A stretch of 64,000 nucleotides of DNA, taken from Candidatus Scatosoma sp. (GTDB taxonomy: Bacteria > Bacillota > Clostridia > Christensenellales > Borkfalkiaceae). Every line of letters starts with the position of its first letter. Positions within the stretch are counted from its first letter, which is position 1. This document shows, piece by piece, positions 41,456-53,502 of this stretch. The position numbers were made by a program, and so were the translations under genes. A model generated the notes under the pieces. It saw nothing but the letters and a program-made list of their open reading frames with translations. It was not told where the DNA came from and searched no databases. The stretch lies in assembly GCA_045614565.1 (NCBI GenBank), contig JAZLDG010000074.1, positions 38,561-102,560 of the forward strand. The letters are read 5' to 3'.

Positions 41456-41682
41456 CACATCCAAACTGTTGATATAATTCTAAATTCTATGGATTAACCG
41501 TAATTTTATATATTTTATGGATATTTTTCTTTCAATAAAATGGATGTTGTAATAAATTATGGACGTTTCAAAACAACTTTTATTCTAAAATTATTCCTAT
41601 TTTATTCCAATTCACTTTTCCCTCCTCTAAAAAGTTATTAAAATCATTTTCAAAATTAAAAATCTAAATATTGGATTTTTGG

Positions 41683-41711
41683 TTGAATTTTTTAGATGGA
41701 TATGCTATAAT
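41683..41711 (+). promoter_or_regulatory. sigma-70-type promoter of the island cargo operon
   Basis: TTGAAT (41683..41688), a 17-nt spacer, then TATAAT (41706..41711), about 40 nt before the XRE gene. Confidence 0.6.
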
Positions 41712-41749: not shown

Positions 41750-41956
41750 ATGGCTGTCAGTTATAAAAAGCTATGGAAACTTTTAATTGATAAGGATATG
41801 AAGAAAAAAGACCTTCGTATTGCTACGGGTATGACTACTACTGCGCTTGCAAAACTCGGTAAAAACGAACACGTAAACACCGAAATTTTGGCTAAAATCT
41901 GCAAAGTTTTAGATTGCAATATAGAAGATATTGTGGAAGTTGTAGATGAAAAGTAA
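41750..41956 (+). CDS. XRE/Cro-family helix-turn-helix transcriptional regulator (68 aa)
   Basis: KKDLRIATGMTTTALAKLGKNEHVNTEILAKICKVLDCNIEDIV is the classic short HTH (YozG/HTH_26-like) pattern. Confidence 0.85.
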   Translation: MAVSYKKLWKLLIDKDMKKKDLRIATGMTTTALAKLGKNEHVNTEILAKICKVLDCNIEDIVEVVDEK

Positions 41957-42023
41957 AAACTTTTATAAATATGACAAGCGTTGTCGTATTTAGCGTAATA
42001 AAATTAATTTTATAGGTGAAATA

Positions 42024-42677
42024 ATGGCAGAAATGGTCTCTTGGATGAATGATAACAATGGCTTTATAATGGGGCTTTTAACTTTGGTATATGTTATAGC
42101 TACTATTTGTATCTGTGTTTTTAATTATAAATCAGCGACTGCGGCACGTAAACAAACTGAAACCCAAATAAATCAATTTAATGCAACGAATCGCCCTAAT
42201 ATTATTCCTTGTTTTACAATGATAGAAGGTGCAATGTTTTGTTTAACCTTCAAAAATATAGGAAACGAATGTGCAAAGAATCTAAAAATAACGATTAATA
42301 AGGAATGGTTTAATTGCTTTGATGAAGCGTTAAAACAAAAACAAATGCCCGGCAATATGAAAGAGTCCTTGCAAAACGAATTTTTTCTTCCCCCTAACGA
42401 TGATATTAAATTTGTTCTTATGATTCCAGGGGATGGTACAACAATGTATCAAGAACTTAGTAAAGAAAAAATAAAAATTCATTTATCATATAATCGAAAC
42501 AATTCCCAAGAATCTTTTAATGATGATTTTGAGTTGGATTTATTGGCAATGGCAGGATTGATACTTGATAAATCAGACTTTATTAGAAAAATGGAAAAAC
42601 AAGAAAAGGCATTAAAAGACATATCGAAAAATATTAAAAGCGTAGAAAAAGCAATTGCAAAGGAGAAAAACTTATGA
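42024..42677 (+). CDS. single-pass membrane protein of unknown function (217 aa)
   Basis: N-terminal TM helix FIMGLLTLVYVIATICICVF followed by a ~180-aa soluble domain. RBS AGGTGA. The stop overlaps the next start (ATGA at 42674..42677). Confidence 0.7.
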   Translation: MAEMVSWMNDNNGFIMGLLTLVYVIATICICVFNYKSATAARKQTETQINQFNATNRPNIIPCFTMIEGAMFCLTFKNIGNECAKNLKITINKEWFNCFDEALKQKQMPGNMKESLQNEFFLPPNDDIKFVLMIPGDGTTMYQELSKEKIKIHLSYNRNNSQESFNDDFELDLLAMAGLILDKSDFIRKMEKQEKALKDISKNIKSVEKAIAKEKNL

Positions 42678-44767
42678 AAGTAGAAAAATATAGAGTTCTT
42701 GGAGAGTTAATTGAGACGAATAAACGTCAATTTGTTATCCCTGTCTATCAAAGAAACTATGATTGGGGAAAACAACACTGCAAAAAACTTTATGACGATA
42801 TTATTTCTGCATATGAGTTAGATAGATTTCACTTTATCGGTTCAATCGTTTATGTCGACCAAGGTGAAGAAAATAAAATATATAGATATTTAATAATTGA
42901 CGGACAGCAAAGAATCACAACACTTTTTTTATTGCTCAAAGCTCTTCTTGATTCAACCGAAGACGAAAACCTTAAAAAAGAGTTTGAAGATATTCTTTTT
43001 AATATCGACAAATATAATGACTTAAAACTAACAGACCAAACAAAAATAAAGTTAAAGCCAATCAAAAGCGATAATGACCAATTTATGCTTTTGATGAAAA
43101 ATGATTTGCAAGCGATTGATAGAAGTTCAAACATTTTTATTAACTATGACTATATGAAAAAGTTGATTTCAAAATCAAACGCATTAGGTATAACAACTAA
43201 AGATATTTTGTCAGGTATCAAGAAATTAACTTCAGCAGTCATTATACTTGACCCAAAAGAAGATGAACCACAAGTGGTTTTTGAGTCTATCAACTCAACA
43301 GGGTTAGACCTTTCTCTTGCAGATTTAATTAGAAACTTTATTCTAATGACTGATAAAAATCAAGAAAAACTTTTTGAAGACTATTGGATTAAAATCGAAA
43401 ATAATGTTGGGCAAAATAAAATGCCCGCCTTTATTACGGATTTCTTGCAGTTTTCTTGTCGTGAGATTGTTTCCACTAAAAATGCTTATATTGTCTTTAA
43501 AAACTATTTTAAGACAGAGAATTTCTCTAATGAACAAATGTTAGAAAAGTTATTGCATTATTCTGCTTTCTACAAGGCATTTTTAGGCAATGATACACAA
43601 ACATATTCTCACATCGTAAACAAAAAATTGGCAGGATTTAATGCATTAGACCAAGGGACTATATATCAATTTTTATTCCACATTTTCGACGATTACGATG
43701 CAGGCATTATTTCAATTGAAGATTTAGAAAAGATTGTTACGTTCTTCTTTAATTATTTACTCCGTAGAATTGTTTGTGGGGTTGGCTCTAATAGTTTAAG
43801 AGGACTATATAAAACTCTATACAATAGAATTTTTGCCGATAAAAAGAATTTGGAAAATTACTACGACTCTATTATTCAATTCTTCTTACAGTTGAATACA
43901 AAGGATGCAGTTCCTTCTGATTCAGCGTTTAAGGATGCCTTAATAAACACTGATATTTATAACAAGAAAAACGTTTGTAAATATCTCTTAAAATCAATAG
44001 AAGATATTGCAGAAGATGGAAGTGAAAGCAAAGAGATATTAGACGTTTCCACTCTTTCTATTGAACATATAATGCCGCAAAAACTTTCAGATTATTGGCA
44101 AACAGCGCTCGGCAATAATTATGCCAAAATACACGAAAAATACTTACATAATCTCGGTAACTTAACGTTAACGGGTTATAATAGTGAATTAGGACAAAAA
44201 ACTTTTGACGAAAAGAAGCAATTAATCATAGATAAAAACTCTCATATTGTTGCTCTTAACAAAGATGTTTTATCTCAAACTTCTTGGGGCGAAAAAGAAA
44301 TTAAAAATCGTGCAGACCGCTTAAGTGCTATTTTATTAAAGTTATTCTATATTGATAAGCCGCAAAAATATATTCAATTTCAAAATGATACGGAAAGGCG
44401 TTATTCGGTTGGAGAAAACTTCGATGCTACGGGAACTAAGCCAAACACTTGCATTTTCTTTGGCAATACCTTAACGGTTAGTTCTTATGCAGACTTATTA
44501 TCAAAAGTTATGGAAGTGTTCTATGATTTAGATAACGATGTAATAAATGAATTAGCGAATAAAAATTACAAGTTAGCAAGCGCATCAAGAACATATATTA
44601 CCCACGATGCTGAAAAATTAAGAAAAGCTGTTGAAATTTACGAAACAGGCATATTTTTTGAATCAAATTTAAGTGCAAATAACATTATTTCTTTCTTAAA
44701 GAGTCTTTTAGATGTGTTTGAGCTTGATTATACCGAACTTGTAATTTGTGTAGATTCTAAACAATAA
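42674..44767 (+). CDS. DUF262/DUF1524 (GmrSD-like) nuclease-family protein with extra C-terminal region (697 aa)
   Basis: N-terminal DUF262 motifs FVIPVYQRNYDWGK and IIDGQQRITTLFLLL. The C-terminal His-Me/DUF1524-like motifs are LSIEHIMPQ and HNLGNLTLTGYNSELGQKTF. About 170 further residues of unknown type follow. Confidence 0.85.
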   Translation: MKVEKYRVLGELIETNKRQFVIPVYQRNYDWGKQHCKKLYDDIISAYELDRFHFIGSIVYVDQGEENKIYRYLIIDGQQRITTLFLLLKALLDSTEDENLKKEFEDILFNIDKYNDLKLTDQTKIKLKPIKSDNDQFMLLMKNDLQAIDRSSNIFINYDYMKKLISKSNALGITTKDILSGIKKLTSAVIILDPKEDEPQVVFESINSTGLDLSLADLIRNFILMTDKNQEKLFEDYWIKIENNVGQNKMPAFITDFLQFSCREIVSTKNAYIVFKNYFKTENFSNEQMLEKLLHYSAFYKAFLGNDTQTYSHIVNKKLAGFNALDQGTIYQFLFHIFDDYDAGIISIEDLEKIVTFFFNYLLRRIVCGVGSNSLRGLYKTLYNRIFADKKNLENYYDSIIQFFLQLNTKDAVPSDSAFKDALINTDIYNKKNVCKYLLKSIEDIAEDGSESKEILDVSTLSIEHIMPQKLSDYWQTALGNNYAKIHEKYLHNLGNLTLTGYNSELGQKTFDEKKQLIIDKNSHIVALNKDVLSQTSWGEKEIKNRADRLSAILLKLFYIDKPQKYIQFQNDTERRYSVGENFDATGTKPNTCIFFGNTLTVSSYADLLSKVMEVFYDLDNDVINELANKNYKLASASRTYITHDAEKLRKAVEIYETGIFFESNLSANNIISFLKSLLDVFELDYTELVICVDSKQ

Positions 44768-44783
44768 AACAAAGGAGAAAATT

Positions 44784-45008
44784 ATGTTTGACCCAAATTG
44801 GTATTATAACCCTAACTGTTTTAATCCACAAGCTTACGCTCAAATGCAAGCGCAACAACAATATGAGCAAGAACAGCAGAAAGATGTATATAACGCAATA
44901 AAAGCCTATAGCGATTTTCTAGATGCAATGGAAAAGTTAGACCCTGCGCATAAGCAAGATGTATTTCGCGGTTGTTTTGTTGAGATTGCTAAACGTATGC
45001 ATTGGTAA
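44784..45008 (+). CDS. small Q/N-rich hypothetical protein (74 aa)
   Basis: RBS AAAGGAG 7 nt upstream. The sequence is MFDPNWYYNPNCFNPQAYAQMQAQQQYEQEQQK... No family recognised. Confidence 0.6.
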   Translation: MFDPNWYYNPNCFNPQAYAQMQAQQQYEQEQQKDVYNAIKAYSDFLDAMEKLDPAHKQDVFRGCFVEIAKRMHW

Positions 45009-45051
45009 TTTTACACACAAAAAAATTGGTAAATAATATAGGAGAAAAGAA

Positions 45052-45747
45052 ATGCCCTTTAGTGAAAAAACAAAAGAAGACGCAATGATAGCGTGTGGGA
45101 GACACTGCTGCATCTGTCATAAGTTTTGTGGCAATAAAATGGAAGTCCATCATATAACTCCACAAAAAGATGGTGGTGAAGACACATTTGAAAACGCTAT
45201 TCCCCTTTGCTTTGATTGCCACGCCGAAGTGGGTGCGTATAATACAAGTCACCCTAAGGGTGTTAAGTTCTCTAAAACTGAATTAAAGCGCCATCGCGAT
45301 AATTGGTATAAATGTGTTAAGCAAGGTAATATAACAAGCGATACAATTCCACCGATGAAATTATTGCGTGAAGAAGGATTTAAAGAAACCCCACTCGTTC
45401 GCATAACATCAGGAATACAACTATTAAATGCGTTGAGTGGTTGTTGTGGAGCTCAATATAATTACGAAGAACCCAAAACGAGAGAAGAAGCATCAATTAT
45501 AAGCGAATTTCAAAAAGAAATGGAATATTTATCGGATGCGGATTCTCTTATCGAAGAAAGCGAAAGAGTTCTAATAGGGTTTGACTTAAATGACTTAATA
45601 ACTAAAATGGATGAGAAAGGTTTTTGGATTTTTATAGGAAGAGAAAATCGCGTCTTAACGGGTGGCGTAATCAAAGAGCCTGAAAGTTTTCCGATATTAC
45701 ATATTTACATTCTAAAAAAAGACAATATAACAATTAAAAATTGTTAA
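45052..45747 (+). CDS. HNH nuclease-domain protein with uncharacterised ~140-aa C-terminal domain
   Basis: CGRHCCICH...MEVHHITPQKDGGEDTFENAIPLCFDCHAEV follows the CxxC...HH...N...CxxCH HNH zinc-finger pattern. RBS AGGAG. Confidence 0.8.
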   Translation: MPFSEKTKEDAMIACGRHCCICHKFCGNKMEVHHITPQKDGGEDTFENAIPLCFDCHAEVGAYNTSHPKGVKFSKTELKRHRDNWYKCVKQGNITSDTIPPMKLLREEGFKETPLVRITSGIQLLNALSGCCGAQYNYEEPKTREEASIISEFQKEMEYLSDADSLIEESERVLIGFDLNDLITKMDEKGFWIFIGRENRVLTGGVIKEPESFPILHIYILKKDNITIKNC

Positions 45748-45830
45748 AATCTTTACAAAAGTAGGCAGATTCCCAAGAACGTGGGCGTTTGCCTATTAAA
45801 TTTTCACAACTCAATATATCTACCCTATTT

Positions 45831-45863
45831 AGGCGAGTGGAATTTGTTCTACTTGCCTTTTTT
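45831..45863 (+). terminator. intrinsic terminator closing the cargo operon
   Basis: AGGCGAGTGG-aatttgtt-CTACTTGCCT, a 10-bp stem with two G-U pairs, followed by TTTTT. Confidence 0.65.
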
Positions 45864-46365
45864 ATGTCCTAAAATTGCTTTCGTGGTTGTTTTTTTAAAA
45901 ATTTTTCAGCATTATAAAGTAGATGGGGTTGCAAAATGCAAAAAAAGTCAGGGATATATAATAGGAGGGTTATTTTCGCTTAAAAAATTCAGCAATATAA
46001 AGTGAGTGGTTGTTTTTTAAGAAAAAAGTAAGGAATATATAGTGTAAGGACAAACAAAAATATAACCGCTTGGTGCGGTGCGGAAATCAAAAAATTGTAA
46101 GCAGGATAAGAAAACCGCACCAAGTTGCAAATTTTCCTATTTTACCAAGCAGGTAAAGGAAAATGCAACAGGTCGCAGTTTCGACTTTTCAAACAATCGG
46201 GAAACCCGATTTTTGCTCTACTCCCCACCACCCAAACATTAACCACAAGGAGGAAAAATTTTATGAAAAATATTTTAGATTTTTATTAAAAACAGCTTGA
46301 CTTTGTTTGTTGAATATGATATTCGTATTAATACGACAATGCACTACGGTTAAGGAGATTTCAAA

Positions 46366-46686
46366 ATGAAAGAATTAACGTTAGAAGAAGTAATGGAATA
46401 TCAGCGAACACACCCACCCGTTAAGCACGTTTACGGCAGATGGGGAAACTTAAAAAAGCAATACTTAATAGACACGGGCAAAGATTGGCTGATTGCAGAT
46501 TTACCCACCTATCTTCACGGTATTGATAAAGCTGCCGAACAAATTTGGGAAGTTATGAGAGAAAAACTCTTAAAGCGCCCCGAATATAAAAAGACGGGCG
46601 AATTTATGCACGACGTTAAAATTGAAACGGAAATCAAAAACCGTATTGACGAAGAAATCTTAACCGAACTTATTTACGTGGATTAA
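46366..46686 (+). CDS. TnpV-like transposon-associated protein (106 aa)
   Basis: MKELT..., a central basic region and the C-terminal EEILTELIYV resemble clostridial TnpV proteins as I remember them. RBS AAGGAG. Confidence 0.55.
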   Translation: MKELTLEEVMEYQRTHPPVKHVYGRWGNLKKQYLIDTGKDWLIADLPTYLHGIDKAAEQIWEVMREKLLKRPEYKKTGEFMHDVKIETEIKNRIDEEILTELIYVD

Positions 46687-46941: not shown

Positions 46942-48360
46942 ATGGCTTATTTCAAAATAAGCACGGATAAAAAAGGAAAATTAAAAGCAAAAATACAAGC
47001 GCTTGGCAGAGACCCCGAGACGGACAAGCAAAAGGTTTGTTATAAATTGGTTAAAAACGATAACGACCTTACCCCGGCCAAGTTTCATAAGTACGTAGAA
47101 AAATGCGCTATTGAGTTCGAAGAAGAACTTGCAAAGGCTTATGAACTCAAAACCGACGTTAAAAAGTTGAAAGTTTTGACTTTTGACGAACTTGCAGCCG
47201 AGTGGCTTGAAAGTGTTAAAAAGAATTGGTCTATCAACTACTATTTAAGGGGAATTGGTATCACCAAAAAGTTTAGCGATTACTTGAAGAACAATAGACT
47301 TGCAGATAAACCCGTGAGTGAAATTACGGTTAGGCACGTTCAAATGTTTTTGAATAGTTTTGAGCAGAAAAACGGCAAACAAGACAACACTGTTTGCCTT
47401 AAAAAATACTTTCCAAACTCAATCAGTTTTAGAGCACTTGCAAGGGATAACGTTATAAATCGTTGTTCGTCATACGGACTTAAGAAAAAAGGCAATTACA
47501 TACTTCGTGAAACGGCAGAGAAAATTTGCGAAATTCACAACCTTGATTTCGACGAATATTTTAAGCCTAACGAAAGAAACAAAGCCTATTCAGCCGAAAC
47601 CATTAAAGGTTATAGAAGATTGCTTAGAACAGTATTTAACGAAGCCGTAAGATACGATTGGATAACGAAAAATCCCGTATGCGCTACAAAGGTTGGCTCA
47701 GGCAATAGCAACTCATCGCTTCGCCCCGTCAACGAAAAGGAAGTTTACTCAATAGCCGAAGCGCAAGAATTTATGAAAGCGCTTGACGAACTTCCCGAAG
47801 ATTTGATTTATAAGCGTGTACCGATAAAGTTTATGCTTCTTACGGGTGTGCGTGCAGGTGAACTTAACGGACTACGTTGGTCGGATATTGATTTTGACAA
47901 GCAAGTGGTTCATATTCGCAGAAATCGGCTTGTGGCGAAAGGTTACGGAATCTATGAGAAAGAACCCAAGACAAAGACTTCCACTCGAGATATACCCCTT
48001 CCAACGCCTTTAATTGACGATTTGAAGGAATATCGTGAGTGGTTTAGAGTAATCGACGACGAGTTTGATAATAATGTGGACGAATACTATTTTGCCGTCA
48101 ATATCTGCCGTGAACCCGTCTATCCACATACGGTTGGTGGTTGGCTTAAAAAGTTTCAAGACGACAAAGGTTTCAAGCGAGTTTGTTGTCACGGACTACG
48201 CCATACCTATTGCAGTTTGCTATTATCGCAAAACGTTCCCTTACAAACGGTTAGTAAATATATGGGACATAGCGACTCAACCATTACTTTGCAGGTTTAC
48301 AGTCACTTTATACCCGACACACAAGAAAAGGCGTTAAATGCACTAAATAACCTATTTTAG
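46942..48360 (+). CDS. int: tyrosine-type site-specific integrase
   Basis: N-terminal SAM-like/core-binding region plus a catalytic domain with LTGVRAGEL (Arg), HGLRHTYCS (H-x-x-R) and GHSDSTITLQVYSH (His...Tyr). Confidence 0.9.
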   Translation: MAYFKISTDKKGKLKAKIQALGRDPETDKQKVCYKLVKNDNDLTPAKFHKYVEKCAIEFEEELAKAYELKTDVKKLKVLTFDELAAEWLESVKKNWSINYYLRGIGITKKFSDYLKNNRLADKPVSEITVRHVQMFLNSFEQKNGKQDNTVCLKKYFPNSISFRALARDNVINRCSSYGLKKKGNYILRETAEKICEIHNLDFDEYFKPNERNKAYSAETIKGYRRLLRTVFNEAVRYDWITKNPVCATKVGSGNSNSSLRPVNEKEVYSIAEAQEFMKALDELPEDLIYKRVPIKFMLLTGVRAGELNGLRWSDIDFDKQVVHIRRNRLVAKGYGIYEKEPKTKTSTRDIPLPTPLIDDLKEYREWFRVIDDEFDNNVDEYYFAVNICREPVYPHTVGGWLKKFQDDKGFKRVCCHGLRHTYCSLLLSQNVPLQTVSKYMGHSDSTITLQVYSHFIPDTQEKALNALNNLF

Positions 48361-48507: not shown

Positions 48508-48582
48508 TGGTAGTCCCTGCGGGAATCGAACCCACAACTAGCCCTTAGGAGGGGCTTGTTATATCCATTTAACTAAGGAACC
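48508..48582 (-). tRNA. island-borne complete tRNA-Arg (anticodon CCU), CCA-encoded
   Basis: Minus strand reads GGTTCCTTAGTTAAATGGATATAACAAGCCCCTCCTAAGGGCTAGTTGTGGGTTCGATTCCCGCAGGGACTACCA. It folds as a 75-nt cloverleaf with anticodon loop CTCCTAA. A hairpin with a T-run (48482..48507) follows it. Confidence 0.88.
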
Positions 48583-48720
48583 AAAATGGATAAAATTTAT
48601 TTTATTTTTATTCCTAAAATTATTCCTAAAACTTTTTAAGTCTTAAAAAGTGGCTATTTTCACTCGTTTTTACCATAAAAAGCATTGATTTTAGATATAT
48701 TAGACGGATAGACCAAGCGT

Positions 48721-48894: not shown

Positions 48895-51800
48895 TTATTC
48901 GCCGTCTTTTTTCAACGAAAGCATTTCGCCGTTCACTTCTATTTCGTCTTTTATCAGTCTTAACGCCGTTTCCATACGCTCCGTTAAGGCTTCCCCTGCG
49001 CGGGCAAAGCCAAGCTGCGAAGCAAGCAAACGGAACAAACCCGCTTTTTCCACCGTTACGTTTCTACGCAACAGCTCTTTAATCCCTGCAATCAGCTCCT
49101 GCAATTCAATATACTTGATATCCCGCGGCTCGTCGCCGTCCTTGGGCACGCGAAGCATCGGAACGGGTTTATTAATCAAATACAAAAATCCGTTCAAACG
49201 CACAATCCCCCAACGCTCGCAACCCTGCATGAGTTTGTTGAACTCGTCGTGCACGACGCCCGTCACCTTTTCCCGACCGCCAAACGCGAACACGATCCGT
49301 TTCAACAGCCATTCTTCGGAAACGGGAGCTTCCTTTTCCACGATCGCTCTCGTCATCTTCACGACGTCTTTTTTATACATTATACCAAGTCTGTTCTCGT
49401 CCAGCTTCTCATACTTGGGGAACTCGAAATGCTTTTCCTTGACCGCTTGTTCAAACGTCGTTTCCTTTTGCCCTTTGCTTTCCTTTTTCGGGGGATGCGC
49501 AATCGCGTACTTGACCGCCGTCAGCAAGCGTTCCTTTTCTACCCGTTTATTCGCAAACCAGTCGGTAGACCAAATACGGTAATACCGCCAGCCCATACGC
49601 TCCATAACTTCCTGCTGCAAGCGATCGCGATCTCTCGTCGTATGGGCGTCGCGATACGCCGCGCCGTCGCACTCGATCGCGAGCGCATATTCTTCCGTAT
49701 TCGGACGTTTGACCGCCAAATCGACCTTAAAGGACGAGCTTCCCAGCCGTTTTTCGACTTCAAAGCCTTCCGCCGTCAAAAAGTCGCAAATCTCCGCTTC
49801 CAAATCGGAATCGTGCGTAGCAAAAAGCTGCGTTTGCGACGTGGCGCGCGTAAGCGCGATATCGCCGTTTTCAGCGTAATCCAAATAATCCCGCAACAAT
49901 CTTGCTCCCACCGAGTTGGTACGCGAAATATCGATATCTCCGTAGTGCATAGACGAAACGAGCTGTACGTTATATTTCGCGCGCGTAACGGCAACGTTCA
50001 GGCGCCGTTCGCCGCCAGCACGGTTGACAGGGCCGAAATTGAGCAACAATTTCCCCTGCGCATCCTTGGCGTAAGCCACGCTGAAAATGATCACGTCGCG
50101 TTCGTCACCTTGTACCGTTTCCAAATTCTTGACGAAAAACGGCTCGCTGCGGTCGGATTTGAAAAACCAGTCCTTGGACGGGTCTTTTTTTCTGCGTTTG
50201 GTAATCAGTTTATCGATCAAGGTTTGTTGCGAAATACTAAACGCGACCACGCCGATACTTCTATCGGGATATTTTTCAATATTTTCAAACACGAGCTCGA
50301 CGACGCGTTCCGCTTCCAAGCGATTGGTTTTGCTCGTTCTGTCAAACACGCCGTCCACGTAAAAGTAATCGACGCCCAAGCCCTTTTTATCCTTTTGCGC
50401 CGAAGGGAAGGTCACAAGCTCTCCGTCGTAAAAATTCTCGTTAGAGAAGGAAATCAAGCGTTCAAAACGGCTTCTGTAATGCCATTTGAGCCGTCTTTGC
50501 GGGAAGGTCGTGGAGCAAAGATCCAAAATGGACTCGAAATCAGTAATATCTTCTTCTTCGCTATCGTCGAAATCGGCGGTGGAATTAAAGAAATTGCTCG
50601 GCGGCATTTGCTTGGAGTCGCCCACGACGATGAGCTGTTTTCCGCGATAAATCGCGCCGACCGCGTCCTGCGGGAAAATTTGCGAAGCTTCGTCGAATAC
50701 GACCACGTCAAATTGTATATCGGGGCTTAAAAAGGTACTTACGCTCAACGGCGACATCAAAAAGCAGGGTTTGAGCGTTTGTGCCAGCTCACCGATTTCC
50801 GACAGTAGCTGCCGTATGCCCTTTTGTTTGCGTTTTTTCTCGCCTTCGCGGAGCAAAATCGCAATACTGCTTCCTTGCGCGATCATATCCAAGGACGGTC
50901 TTTGCGCAGACAGCGTCGCTTTGATTTTCGCTTTATTGATATCGAAATGTAAATTGTCTTTTTCCTTGAACCGTTTTACCGTTTCGTCGTGCGGTATTCT
51001 TGCAAATTCCGCAAGCGCAGGCGTTTGGCCGAGTACCAAATCCGCCCATTGCGAATAGTAGGTTTTTTGGAACGTATCGCAAACGGCGGGGGCAGGTATG
51101 CGTTTATCAATGGTTTTATTGACGAACGTAAACAGCGACAAGGCTTTCAATTCGTCCAAAAGCTTCATAAACGAGCACCAGTGTCCAAGCTCGTCTACGC
51201 GGTCTAAACAGTCGCGGTATTTTTGCGTCAACGCGTCCAAAGGCGCGCGTTGCGTGTCGTACGCGTTCAAATCAAAGCGTTCTTTCAAACCTTTTTCCGC
51301 TTCGCCGTCCTTGGCAAACGCTTTTTCGTACGCGTCGAAAAATCTTGCAAACGAGCCGCGTTCGCTTTCAAATTCGCTCGGCGTATATTTTTGCAAACGC
51401 GCAAAGTCTACGTTTTCGGAATGAATTTCCGCCAACCGCGTCAATTCGTCGATCGCGCGCTTAAAATCCGTGTTGACCCCTGCGTAGTCCTTGCCCAACG
51501 CGTCCTTTACGCGATTTTCCAATTCGTCAAATTCGCGGAGCGTAGTTTGATACACGCAAAGATCGTCCATCGACGACACCGCTTTCTTATACGGGAGCTT
51601 TTTGCCGTTTCCCGTGCAGAAACGGATATCCTGCGCGATTGCTTTGTATTCCTTGGAAAACAAACGGGTGAAAAATCCGTCGTATTGCCGCGTTAATTTT
51701 TTATACAGTTCTTGTCCGTTGAGCTTATACACGTCTTGATCAAAGCGCATATCTAGCGCCTTTTTCTTTTGCAAAACGGTTTCGGCGAGCGTTTTCATCT

Positions 51801-53502
51801 TCCCACAAAGCTCTAATACGCGCGTATTTTCGCTTGATTTTAACAGCGTAGGCGTGATAAAACGCGCGTCTTTTAACAAGGCAAAGCATTTTTCAAGCGT
51901 TCGCGCGCCGTTTACGCCGTCTACGCACACGCCGTATTTGTCCTTGACGCTGTCGCGTAAAATCACGAGCGTATCGCAAAGGCTGATTGCGCCTTGAAAC
52001 TCCGCTTTGAGCTTGGTTACGGACGGATAGGAATAATCCCCGTCAACGTAACCGTACCAAACGTTCTTACGGTAGTCGTAGCCCACGGACTCGGTATATT
52101 CCGCGTATCGCGTCAACGCCGTTTCCGCTTTTTCGCCGTATTCTTCGCCCTTGCTAGGCAAATCCGAAATCACGAAATCCATCGTAGGCGCGTTTCGCCG
52201 CGCCGCGATTTCTTCAAATAAGCGGTACGCCGATTTATTGATAATCGGGCGGGGCGCGTGCAATTCTTTGGCGTATTCGTCCAAGCGTTCTTGCGCTTCT
52301 TTTTTCAGCCGAATTTCCCGATCCGCTTTATCCGAAACGCCGCTTTTTTGCAACTTCAAGGTATGGCAAAGCTCTTCGATAACCTGCTTTTTATTGGCTT
52401 TATGGCTGTGCAATTCCAAACAAAATTCTTCCAAGCCAACTTTTTTTAATTTATCGTATACGACGCTCAACGCCGCGAGTTTTTCAGAAACGAACAATAC
52501 CTTTTTTCCGTCGCCCATACATTCGGCGATGATATTCGTGATCGTTTGACTCTTGCCCGTTCCCGGAGGCCCTTGCAAGACGAAGCTTTCGCCTGCTTTG
52601 GCAAGCGCAATCGCTTCCCCTTGGCTGGAATCGGCGTCTACGACGTTACGCAAAGACAAAAGGTCGGGGGCAGGTATGCGTTCATTGTCCGTTTGTTCCA
52701 CCTTTTCGCCAAGCAAAGCGCGAATACAAGCGTTTTGCGCGATCTTGGGCGCGTTATCCTTTAAGTCCTTGTACATATTGATTTTCAAAAAAGAAAACGT
52801 ACCGATTTTACATTCCGTCGTCACCGTCCACTTCAACCGCGAAACGACGTCTTGTATCCGCAAGAAATACCCTTCGATCCCTTCGTCTTCGTCGTATTCG
52901 GGAAGCTTCACGCCGAACTCGTTTTGGAGCTTAAAGGAAAAAGTCGGATTGACGATCACTTCGTCGTCCGTTACGCGTACGTAGCAAGGCTCGACGGGAG
53001 ATTCGTTTTCAATGCAAACAGGAGCGAGCAAAATGGGCGCGCGCATACTCGTGGGCGCGTTTTCGTTTTCCCGCCAGTGAATAAAACCGAATGCAAGATA
53101 GGCGATATTGACGCCCGTTTCTTCCATTGCACTACGCGCTTTTTTACCGATGTTTTTCAGGGCTTGAATGGGTTTATTTTCGCTGTTATATACGAGAATT
53201 TGACGGTTTTTCACCTTTTTACGATAGGCGAGCAAATATTCGCCCTTGGTGATTTTTTGTTCTACACTTTCCCCGTCCCAAAGCGTGGTGGGAAGCGTAT
53301 AATCTTCGTCGTCTTCTTGCTTGGGATCGTATACTTCAAAGACGGCGGAATGTTCCGCGCGAGAAAATACCGTCGCAAAATCGGGATAGACGATTTCCGC
53401 CGTTCCCGTTTTCGTGTCCTTGAAATTGATCAAATTATTCCCCTTGCCCGTATCCAGCAATAAATCCGCCCATACGTGCAGTTTCTCCGTTCCCTTACTC
53501 AT
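48895..53502 (-). CDS. 1535-aa DUF4011-like / Upf1-like SF1 helicase / Vsr-DUF559-like endonuclease / DUF3320-like protein (Hhe-like)
   Basis: Helicase motifs: Walker A LQGPPGTGKSQT, motif II VVVFDEASQI, then LIVVGDSKQMPP, VQGDERDVIIFS and RLNVAVTRAK. The endonuclease-fold segment is FKVDLAV...ALAIECDGAAYRD...RDRLQQEVMERMGWRYYRIWSTDW. The long N- and C-terminal extensions fit DUF4011 and DUF3320 by layout. Confidence 0.8.
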   Translation of the reverse strand: MSKGTEKLHVWADLLLDTGKGNNLINFKDTKTGTAEIVYPDFATVFSRAEHSAVFEVYDPKQEDDEDYTLPTTLWDGESVEQKITKGEYLLAYRKKVKNRQILVYNSENKPIQALKNIGKKARSAMEETGVNIAYLAFGFIHWRENENAPTSMRAPILLAPVCIENESPVEPCYVRVTDDEVIVNPTFSFKLQNEFGVKLPEYDEDEGIEGYFLRIQDVVSRLKWTVTTECKIGTFSFLKINMYKDLKDNAPKIAQNACIRALLGEKVEQTDNERIPAPDLLSLRNVVDADSSQGEAIALAKAGESFVLQGPPGTGKSQTITNIIAECMGDGKKVLFVSEKLAALSVVYDKLKKVGLEEFCLELHSHKANKKQVIEELCHTLKLQKSGVSDKADREIRLKKEAQERLDEYAKELHAPRPIINKSAYRLFEEIAARRNAPTMDFVISDLPSKGEEYGEKAETALTRYAEYTESVGYDYRKNVWYGYVDGDYSYPSVTKLKAEFQGAISLCDTLVILRDSVKDKYGVCVDGVNGARTLEKCFALLKDARFITPTLLKSSENTRVLELCGKMKTLAETVLQKKKALDMRFDQDVYKLNGQELYKKLTRQYDGFFTRLFSKEYKAIAQDIRFCTGNGKKLPYKKAVSSMDDLCVYQTTLREFDELENRVKDALGKDYAGVNTDFKRAIDELTRLAEIHSENVDFARLQKYTPSEFESERGSFARFFDAYEKAFAKDGEAEKGLKERFDLNAYDTQRAPLDALTQKYRDCLDRVDELGHWCSFMKLLDELKALSLFTFVNKTIDKRIPAPAVCDTFQKTYYSQWADLVLGQTPALAEFARIPHDETVKRFKEKDNLHFDINKAKIKATLSAQRPSLDMIAQGSSIAILLREGEKKRKQKGIRQLLSEIGELAQTLKPCFLMSPLSVSTFLSPDIQFDVVVFDEASQIFPQDAVGAIYRGKQLIVVGDSKQMPPSNFFNSTADFDDSEEEDITDFESILDLCSTTFPQRRLKWHYRSRFERLISFSNENFYDGELVTFPSAQKDKKGLGVDYFYVDGVFDRTSKTNRLEAERVVELVFENIEKYPDRSIGVVAFSISQQTLIDKLITKRRKKDPSKDWFFKSDRSEPFFVKNLETVQGDERDVIIFSVAYAKDAQGKLLLNFGPVNRAGGERRLNVAVTRAKYNVQLVSSMHYGDIDISRTNSVGARLLRDYLDYAENGDIALTRATSQTQLFATHDSDLEAEICDFLTAEGFEVEKRLGSSSFKVDLAVKRPNTEEYALAIECDGAAYRDAHTTRDRDRLQQEVMERMGWRYYRIWSTDWFANKRVEKERLLTAVKYAIAHPPKKESKGQKETTFEQAVKEKHFEFPKYEKLDENRLGIMYKKDVVKMTRAIVEKEAPVSEEWLLKRIVFAFGGREKVTGVVHDEFNKLMQGCERWGIVRLNGFLYLINKPVPMLRVPKDGDEPRDIKYIELQELIAGIKELLRRNVTVEKAGLFRLLASQLGFARAGEALTERMETALRLIKDEIEVNGEMLSLKKDGE

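Follow-up and report, generated by a model that had tools for sequence, protein, structure and literature searches.

TM217, a membrane protein encoded next to a GmrSD-type nuclease, is very probably a roving companion of restriction systems and possibly a membrane effector

Why should a small membrane protein be encoded directly in front of a restriction nuclease, with the stop codon of one gene overlapping the start codon of the other? This question is raised by a locus of Candidatus Scatosoma sp. (GenBank assembly GCA_045614565.1, contig JAZLDG010000074.1), considered here within a window of 64,000 nucleotides (nt), i.e., the whole stretch of DNA that was analysed. The first gene encodes a single-pass membrane protein of 217 amino acids (aa), named TM217, and the second a nuclease of the GmrSD family. 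An initial annotation of this DNA took the overlap as typical of stoichiometric partners, and considered the membrane protein as a sensor, an anchor or an abortive-infection effector. The answer reached here is a different one: TM217 is very probably a roving module linked to restriction systems and not a dedicated partner of GmrSD. By analogy with known systems, a membrane-effector or guardian mechanism can be proposed for it, although only tentatively, and the combined statement, that of a roving module which is also an autonomous second-line membrane effector backing up its restriction system, comes close to an even chance without reaching it.

How large is the family to which TM217 belongs? 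Its relatives include 24 close clusters, and an exhaustive search (E ≤ 1e-3) returned representatives of 401 clusters formed at 50% identity; most have ∼200 aa, and the family extends over gut Firmicutes, Verrucomicrobia and other phyla. TM217 itself found no match in Pfam, NCBIfam or PADLOC; 64 diverse members compared with Pfam gave no recurring family, the matches being to 12 scattered families with 1-2 members apiece. The sole match in PHROGs was weak (phrog_9607, function unknown, 7e-5), tblastn against the deposited phages of the INPHARED collection gave no match, and no description of the family was found in the literature on DUF4391 or on membrane proteins linked to GmrSD, Ronin or hsd genes. 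To judge by these comparisons, TM217 belongs to none of the families described so far, and its own is large and unannotated. Short family matches of ∼55-85 aa were considered as mini-proteins similar to RonA of the Ronin system, and rejected because they look like truncated or frameshifted fragments.

The central finding concerns the company that this family keeps: its linkage is promiscuous among enzymes, yet specific for restriction. By our own count, ∼20 of the ∼29 informative non-redundant loci are restriction-linked. These loci were retrieved with the closer alignment, A1, while the alignment of 64 members, A2, has no conserved stretch of 7-10 residues; the reading of contexts for the close clusters left out P0002, P0004, P0006, P0011-P0014, P0016 and P0017. 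At 87-88% identity, the order is the one seen in the window, TM gene-GmrSD-74 aa-HNH, behind differing upstream genes (HipA_C or a 259-aa open reading frame, ORF), in L022, L053 and L023. At 67-75% identity, the gene is part of another operon, (HTH_26)-SNF2-DUF4391-TM gene-type III mod-(variable)-res (P0005, P0007, P0009, P0010, P0015, P0018), and at 68% it follows a Metallophos/HD protein and precedes a 381-aa ORF, two methyltransferases (MTases) and a type II restriction endonuclease (REase) (P0008). At 25-41% identity, it lies directly behind hsdS of type I operons in 6/6 cases (L006, L017, L018, L044, L047 and Pusillibacter faecalis pMM59_01, the one match of a tblastn search against plasmids). 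Relatives of lower identity accompany an MTase-Mrr fusion (L012), Mrr (L010), an Eco57I-like type IIG enzyme (L042), a type III mod (L024), an HSDR_N protein (L013) and a type ISP enzyme (L031), or stand behind DUF1848, a DRT accessory that is defence-associated and not a restriction gene (L013, L040). Others are found in phages (L014=L064, L034, L037=L065) or in housekeeping-like surroundings (L011, L016, L029, L038, L046). Within the operons the slots of the gene are fixed, behind hsdS in type I systems and, in the type III systems linked to SNF2, between DUF4391 and mod; in L017 the order is hsdM-hsdS-TM gene-hsdR, and hsdR is present in L006, L017 and L018. The initial annotation had asked whether the gene stands randomly beside unrelated genes in other genomes: its neighbours are indeed unrelated to each other, but they are not random, being overwhelmingly restriction systems.

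Some of these loci deserve a remark of their own. The SNF2-DUF4391-TM gene-type III mod-res operon recurs in L005, L048-L051 and L054; DUF4391 has no PADLOC model, and the variable part before res consists of 138- and 339-aa genes, of a 269-aa gene with SLFN/AlbA_2, of DUF2971, or of a gene of 271-275 aa. In L001 (2322-5963), the protein encoded upstream of the TM gene and the type II restriction-modification system has 1213 aa and combines Metallophos with HD_3; its NCBIfam match to the "anti-phage phosphoesterase" DS9_1 is weak (3.9e-9) and under the cutoff. As for the phage-borne copies, that of L037/L065 (3338-6564) lies three genes behind an amidase/NAGPA endolysin, and that of L014/L064 (6001-9793) two genes ahead of the small and large terminase subunits (TerS/TerL).

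Is TM217 nonetheless bound to the nuclease of the window as its stoichiometric anchor, sensor or regulated effector? The arrangement itself is as first described, with an ATGA shared by the two genes and an AAGGAG within the upstream ORF, 8 nt ahead of the ATG (Table 1). The two genes are co-operonic and lie inside a defence cassette, the pairing is absent from the described GmrSD, BrxU and SspE systems, as the initial annotation had stated, and it recurs in L022 and L053 and, decayed, in L023. However, an ATGA overlap of 4 nt, combined with an internal Shine-Dalgarno sequence, is nothing unusual in compact operons: it shows co-transcription, not stoichiometric partnership. In six other loci (L005, L006, L048, L049, L051, L054) the TM gene overlaps or abuts quite different neighbours by 4-14 nt, the overlap partners being mod, DUF4391, hsdS and a 59-aa ORF, so that the overlap does not serve as the mark for which it had been taken. 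For annotation in general, the warning is that a stop/start overlap in a defence island does not by itself indicate a protein complex.

The closest relatives of both proteins argue in the same direction. Every TM217 homologue at 65-75% identity with a readable context is part of an unrelated operon, of type III or type II, and the closest nuclease homologues with readable contigs have no TM neighbour: the one at 85% identity (P0172) occurs as HTH_26-KilA-N-GmrSD, the one at 76% (P0177) stands alone next to hsdM and hsdS, and the one at 72% (P0182) occurs as HTH-MTase-RE_AlwI-GmrSD.

The recent history of the two genes also differs. Window positions 41966-45874, comprising TM217, GmrSD, the 74-aa ORF and HNH, correspond to L022 5944-9848, and the identity along this block is a mosaic: 77-91% over the TM gene, ∼94% over 42596-42995, and 99-100% for everything downstream, with a breakpoint zone at ∼42600-43000. 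Synonymous divergence (dS) is 0.87 for TM217 and 0.10 for GmrSD, about nine-fold apart in one lineage; the TM gene and the nuclease have thus been exchanged independently of each other. With the TM genes of the type III contexts, similarity of the DNA extends over the ORF only (42042-42636) and ends at its boundaries; the gene therefore moves as a single-ORF module. In L023 (2711-4426), TM217 is joined to the C-terminal half of GmrSD by a 1-kb deletion that corresponds to window 42556-43589, and the 90% cluster of the window nuclease holds many truncated members of 328 aa; decayed copies are therefore common in gut metagenomes. One detail of the mosaic speaks for partnership, since the zone of intermediate identity that runs into the 5' end of GmrSD suggests that the donor allele also adjoined a GmrSD gene. 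Taken against the changing neighbours, the nucleases devoid of a TM gene and the unequal divergence, it leaves a dedicated partnership highly improbable.

If TM217 is not devoted to one enzyme, does it matter at all, or is it a passenger? A membrane protein of mobile elements could have a holin-like lysis function, or one in element maintenance or in the envelope, and no role in defence. The housekeeping-like loci, the phage copy that follows an endolysin by three genes and the failure of every defence library used to recognise TM217 would all suit such a passenger. Yet restriction-linked loci prevail with positions fixed within their operons, and within the GmrSD cassette the gene is under strong purifying selection: its dN/dS (nonsynonymous to synonymous divergence, window against L022) is 0.07, which indicates a functional gene. 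A passenger without a defence role is accordingly a distinctly unlikely explanation.

What, then, does the protein look like? As the initial annotation had described it, there is one N-terminal transmembrane (TM) helix (FIMGLLTLVYVIATICICVF), followed by a soluble part that ends in a helix. The AlphaFold2 model (pLDDT 91.8, pTM 0.74) consists of a helix at residues 12-55, i.e., the TM segment with a stalk, a seven-strand beta-sandwich at 60-171, and a second helix at 173-216. The orientation of the protein in the membrane, which had been proposed as a check, is predicted to be N-out/C-in, with the globular part in the cytoplasm, because Lys and Arg are distributed asymmetrically across the TM helix (mean 0.33 on the N-side and 3.8 on the C-side) and the positive-inside rule is obeyed in 64/64 members. 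A fusion supports this orientation: P0329 (499 aa, one contig only, from a JGI metagenome) joins a signal peptide and an S1-P1 nuclease (PF02265) to a TM217 module, an architecture that puts the N-terminus outside the cell and reads as an extracytoplasmic nuclease tethered by the module.

The most conserved part of the protein is the one inside the membrane. In alignment A2, conservation reaches 0.62 in the TM segment but only 0.35 in the sandwich and 0.29 in the C-terminal helix. Residues T20, Y23, V24, T27, I30 and N34 are conserved in 90-98% of the 64 members, and Q44 and Q51 in 78-79%; T20, Y23, T27 and N34 are polar residues on one heptad face of the helix, a stripe that Q44 and Q51 continue along the stalk. 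The short tail outside the membrane is conserved as well (W-x-N-x-N-x-G). Some relatives possess additional N-terminal multi-pass regions, and others share the N-tail and the TM helix only, their C-terminal domains being unrelated. Since the helix is conserved while the globular parts are variable and can be swapped, it is probably the active element.

Could the helix be simply an anchor, and TM217 a generic tether or scaffold that brings the co-encoded restriction enzyme to the inner membrane, near the site of DNA entry? A precedent is SNIPE, in which a TM region, DUF4041 and a GIY-YIG nuclease are joined in one single-pass N-out/C-in protein whose anchoring region is the least conserved (Saxton et al., Nature 2026, PMC13190303); TM217 would do the same in trans. 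It has the topology of SNIPE, it likewise connects nuclease-based defence with the membrane, the P0329 fusion shows that the module is able to carry a nuclease, and peptide-binding appendage domains are similar to its Ig-like sandwich in the cytoplasm. On the other hand, SNIPE carries its own nuclease, whereas TM217 has none, and Pfam finds neither DUF4041 nor GIY-YIG in TM217 or GmrSD. Proteins ∼70% identical to each other accompany enzymes as unrelated as GmrSD, type III Mod/Res and a type II REase, and a common binding surface on these is unlikely; the nuclease of P0329 is extracellular, opposite to the side of the sandwich. Finally, a plain anchor would be the least conserved region, as in SNIPE, whereas here the helix is the best-conserved one; together with the swapped C-terminal domains, this contrast argues that the helix is more than an anchor. 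A generic tether is thus very unlikely.

Another possibility is that TM217 stops phages at the membrane on its own. Superinfection-exclusion proteins of phages, such as lactococcal Sie2009 and Imm of T4, are small, membrane-anchored, borne by phages or mobile elements, and protect at the membrane. An autonomous entry blocker of this sort would hinder the injection of phage DNA, for example by binding a conserved membrane component of the host or the injection machinery of the phage, and would be found in restriction operons because defence genes travel together. Family members do occur in phages (L014=L064, L037=L065, L034), the weak PHROGs match points to them too, and the two significant matches of the TM217 fold in BFVD are phage membrane proteins, neither of them characterised: a transmembrane protein of Rhizobium phage RHEph01 (2e-6) and one of Siphoviridae ctUGQ45. 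A highly conserved TM helix with its conserved outside tail would suit a conserved partner in the membrane, and SNIPE shows that the site of injection is a target of defence (PMC13190303). Several observations fit this explanation poorly. The prediction places most of TM217 in the cytoplasm, neither sequence nor fold was found to relate it to Sie2009 or Imm, the INPHARED phage records contain no sequence homologue, and a fixed slot inside operons is tighter than mere co-residence in an island. An entry blocker is unlikely on balance, though a serious candidate.

The preferred proposal is that TM217 is an autonomous second-line effector, able to ride with any restriction system. In this scheme, the conserved TM and stalk helix would oligomerise through its polar heptad stripe into a bundle with a polar core, and the beta-sandwich with the C-terminal helix would be the sensing or regulatory part that reads a cue in the cytoplasm. 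A phage protein could supply the cue, for instance an anti-restriction factor, as could an event that follows when restriction fails; TM217 so activated would perturb the membrane, leading to growth arrest or abortive infection, and would in this way back up the co-encoded restriction system as RonA does in Ronin or PrrC in EcoprrI. A trigger of its own is favoured over binding to each enzyme because TM proteins that are still ∼70% identical serve enzymes of unrelated kinds, and a role as back-up, when restriction is evaded or inhibited, is suggested by the restriction-specific linkage and by the prrC-like slot in L017. Of the functions considered by the initial annotation, that of an abortive-infection effector is hence plausible.

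How close are the known systems? RonA, described by Silas et al., is a TM protein of only 61 aa with a linkage to HsdMS; it is lethal alone, is held in check by HsdMS acting as a decoy, is released by Ocr and ArdA, and is thought to injure the inner membrane (bioRxiv 10.1101/2023.04.06.535777). The likeness lies in a small protein with one TM helix, encoded tightly with restriction-type genes (hsdS, hsdM), and in a back-up against anti-restriction proteins. The differences are that RonA, whose linkage to hsdMS is exclusive, is essentially one TM helix, whereas TM217 adds a beta-sandwich of 115 aa and a C-terminal helix of 44 aa, and that the partner in the window is GmrSD, while the relatives of TM217 occur with complete type I as well as with type II, III and IV systems. 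PrrC and PARIS have been described as "RM guardians" that sense the failure of restriction (PMC12707154). As in EcoprrI (and with RloC), an accessory gene is embedded in an hsd operon, and its slot in L017 is the slot of prrC; PrrC, however, is a cytoplasmic protein made of an ABC-ATPase and an anticodon nuclease, and TM217 is a membrane protein devoid of such domains according to Pfam, NCBIfam and PADLOC. TM217 thus lacks the defining features of Ronin, PrrC and SNIPE, with RonA compared by its description, and may still work like Ronin or PrrC.

Several points weigh against this proposal. The arrangement of the TM gene in front of GmrSD has lasted long enough for the TM gene to reach a dS of ∼0.9, which leaves room for a functional coupling within this lineage. 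The ∼5 housekeeping-looking loci and the three phage loci make the restriction linkage strong but not universal. The fixed slot, behind hsdS or between DUF4391 and mod, could reflect a physical tie to the methylase or specificity part instead of autonomy, and thus an interaction with that module. Nothing toxin-like came from the searches with the predicted fold: in the PDB, Foldseek gave only generic Ig-like sandwiches (GGA GAE, the cytoplasmic domain of Kir, MALT1 Ig3; best E 4.7e-3), and the BFVD matches are those given above. Both the trigger and the membrane-damaging activity are, moreover, purely inferred.

As for the nuclease, it has both defining features of GmrSD proteins, namely an N-terminal DUF262/ParB-like domain with DGQQR (at residue 76) and a DUF1524 His-Me finger domain (IEHI at residue 464). 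Pfam places GmrSD_N at residues 9-223 (2.4e-34) and GmrSD_C at 414-552 (3.1e-25), and the PADLOC models Orf5 PDLC02693 (2e-126) and HEC-06 match end to end, over residues 7-558. A search of the PDB with the single sequence gave no match; relatives were detected only with the profile of the subfamily, which retrieved 9jfl_B (1.4e-19), SspE (6jiv, 2e-10) and, weakly, BrxU (7p9k, 0.32). The domains and motifs are shared with GmrSD, BrxU and SspE, yet the window enzyme differs from the latter two in its setting: it is not embedded in a BREX system, as its neighbours are HTH_26, TM217, the 74-aa ORF, HNH, TnpV and the integrase, and no ssp genes occur in the island, the PADLOC SspE models matching the N-terminal ∼100 residues only. 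Homologues with the full architecture of ∼695-704 aa number in the thousands, and the protein is predicted to be a self-sufficient type IV, i.e., modification-dependent, enzyme, an ordinary member of a very common subfamily of ∼700 aa.

The end of the nuclease raises a question of its own. The initial annotation pointed to ∼170 unassigned C-terminal residues after the His-Me motif; the tail that starts at PQKYIQFQ (residue 563) has 135 aa, or 145 aa if counted from the end of GmrSD_C. It does lie outside GmrSD_C, but it is a normal part of the subfamily, conserved throughout it, with a predicted fold of pLDDT 88.9. Neither the PADLOC models nor the solved relatives cover it. The only coherent PDB matches of this extension are to the C-terminal domain of SeqA (3fmt, 1lrr, 1iu3; E only 0.016-0.05), with a probability of 1.0 and an rmsd of 2.2-2.7 Å over 86-89 residues. 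This domain of SeqA binds hemimethylated GATC, and the extension may be the domain with which this GmrSD subfamily reads modifications, which is a lead and not a demonstration.

Where does the gene pair reside? The cassette is part of an island of ∼7 kb with ∼30% GC (guanine plus cytosine), against 44-50% in the flanks, which carries, in order, an HTH_26 regulator, TM217, GmrSD, a 74-aa ORF, HNH, TnpV, a 76-aa ORF and a tyrosine integrase (Table 1); the whole probably represents a small integrative element. HTH_26 through HNH, five genes in all, look like one operon because the best of the promoter-like sites lies ahead of the HTH gene and the first good terminator-like hairpin follows HNH; that promoter-like site is the probable start of the operon, and the scan of the window gave no terminator-like site between 41683 and 45831. 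The region of the tRNA at the right edge is partly duplicated 176 nt away (48540-48601/48716-48777).

Table 1. Features of the island and their positions in the window.
Feature	Position	Strand	Basis or remark
Promoter-like site, TTGAAT-17-TATAAT with upstream TG	41683..41711	+	Consensus match only; precedes HTH_26 gene
HTH_26 regulator, 68 aa, Cro/C1-type, VanU-like	41750..41956	+	Pfam HTH_26 6e-19; NCBIfam VanU 2.8e-23, under curated cutoff
TM217, single-pass membrane protein, 217 aa	42024..42677	+	ORF and predicted structure
TM helix of TM217, residues 14-33	42063..42122	+	Conservation in alignment A2
AAGGAG (42660-42665) and ATGA stop/start overlap (42674-42677)	42660..42677	+	
GmrSD-family nuclease (DUF262 and DUF1524 His-Me), 697 aa	42674..44767	+	Pfam, PADLOC
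C-terminal extension of nuclease, residues 563-697	44360..44764	+	
Q-rich ORF, 74 aa	44784..45008	+	No family match; within block common to L022 and L023
HNH endonuclease, 231 aa	45052..45747	+	Pfam HNH 4e-10; final gene of shared block
Terminator-like hairpin, 12 pairs and T run	45831..45858	+	Coincides with end (45874) of block shared with L022
TnpV	46366-46686		Pfam; upstream of integrase
Tyrosine integrase of low-GC island	46942..48360	+	Pfam
tRNA-Arg(CCT)	48508..48582	-	Right edge of island
Imperfect direct repeats, candidate att sites	41578-41599 and 48607-48628		Island edges

The other genes of the island have stories of their own. The HNH protein also follows GmrSD in L022 and L023, and its 90% cluster includes a member found on 111 contigs. 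Together with the 74-aa ORF, it accompanies this GmrSD allele in the window, L022 and L023, and both are absent behind the 85%-identical GmrSD of L056. A weak PADLOC match (6e-5) of the 74-aa ORF to Aga_REase-PNTD was set aside as driven by the composition of this Q-rich ORF. Small VanU-like HTH_26 proteins (MAVSYKKLWKLLIDK...) head restriction operons of differing types, with or without a membrane gene: besides the window, they are found in L048 (353-556), L006 (434-661) and L056 (549-758 and 2888-3217). The leader of the window is not included in the block common to the window and L022; its identity is 62% with the leader of the type III operon in L048, 38% with that of the type I operon in L006, and 77% and 67% with the two of L056, a GmrSD locus without a TM gene. 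Such leaders may be controllers or repressors, in analogy to C proteins or RptR. Just beyond the island, in DNA of ∼50% GC, the minus strand encodes a helicase-nuclease of 1535 aa (48895-53502), which has an end-to-end match (1374 bits) to PDC-S37, a candidate system of PADLOC, as well as a match to Hhe; the island has thus landed beside another defence gene.

What would this family mean for bacterial immunity? No bacterial defence is commoner than restriction, which phages routinely disarm, and few guardians that punish this disarming are known: PrrC, PARIS and Ronin. The boldest reading is that the TM217 family is a widespread and undescribed set of "universal restriction guardians", whose polar-striped helix forms a pore or a lesion once restriction of types I-IV is neutralised or evaded; this is rather unlikely, although conceivable. 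If true, it would extend the principle of Ronin and PrrC from single cases to a portable module that crosses phyla. If TM217 is an effector or guardian, it would represent a general and portable second layer of restriction-based immunity, and would add to the known membrane effectors a small one whose architecture is simple and testable.

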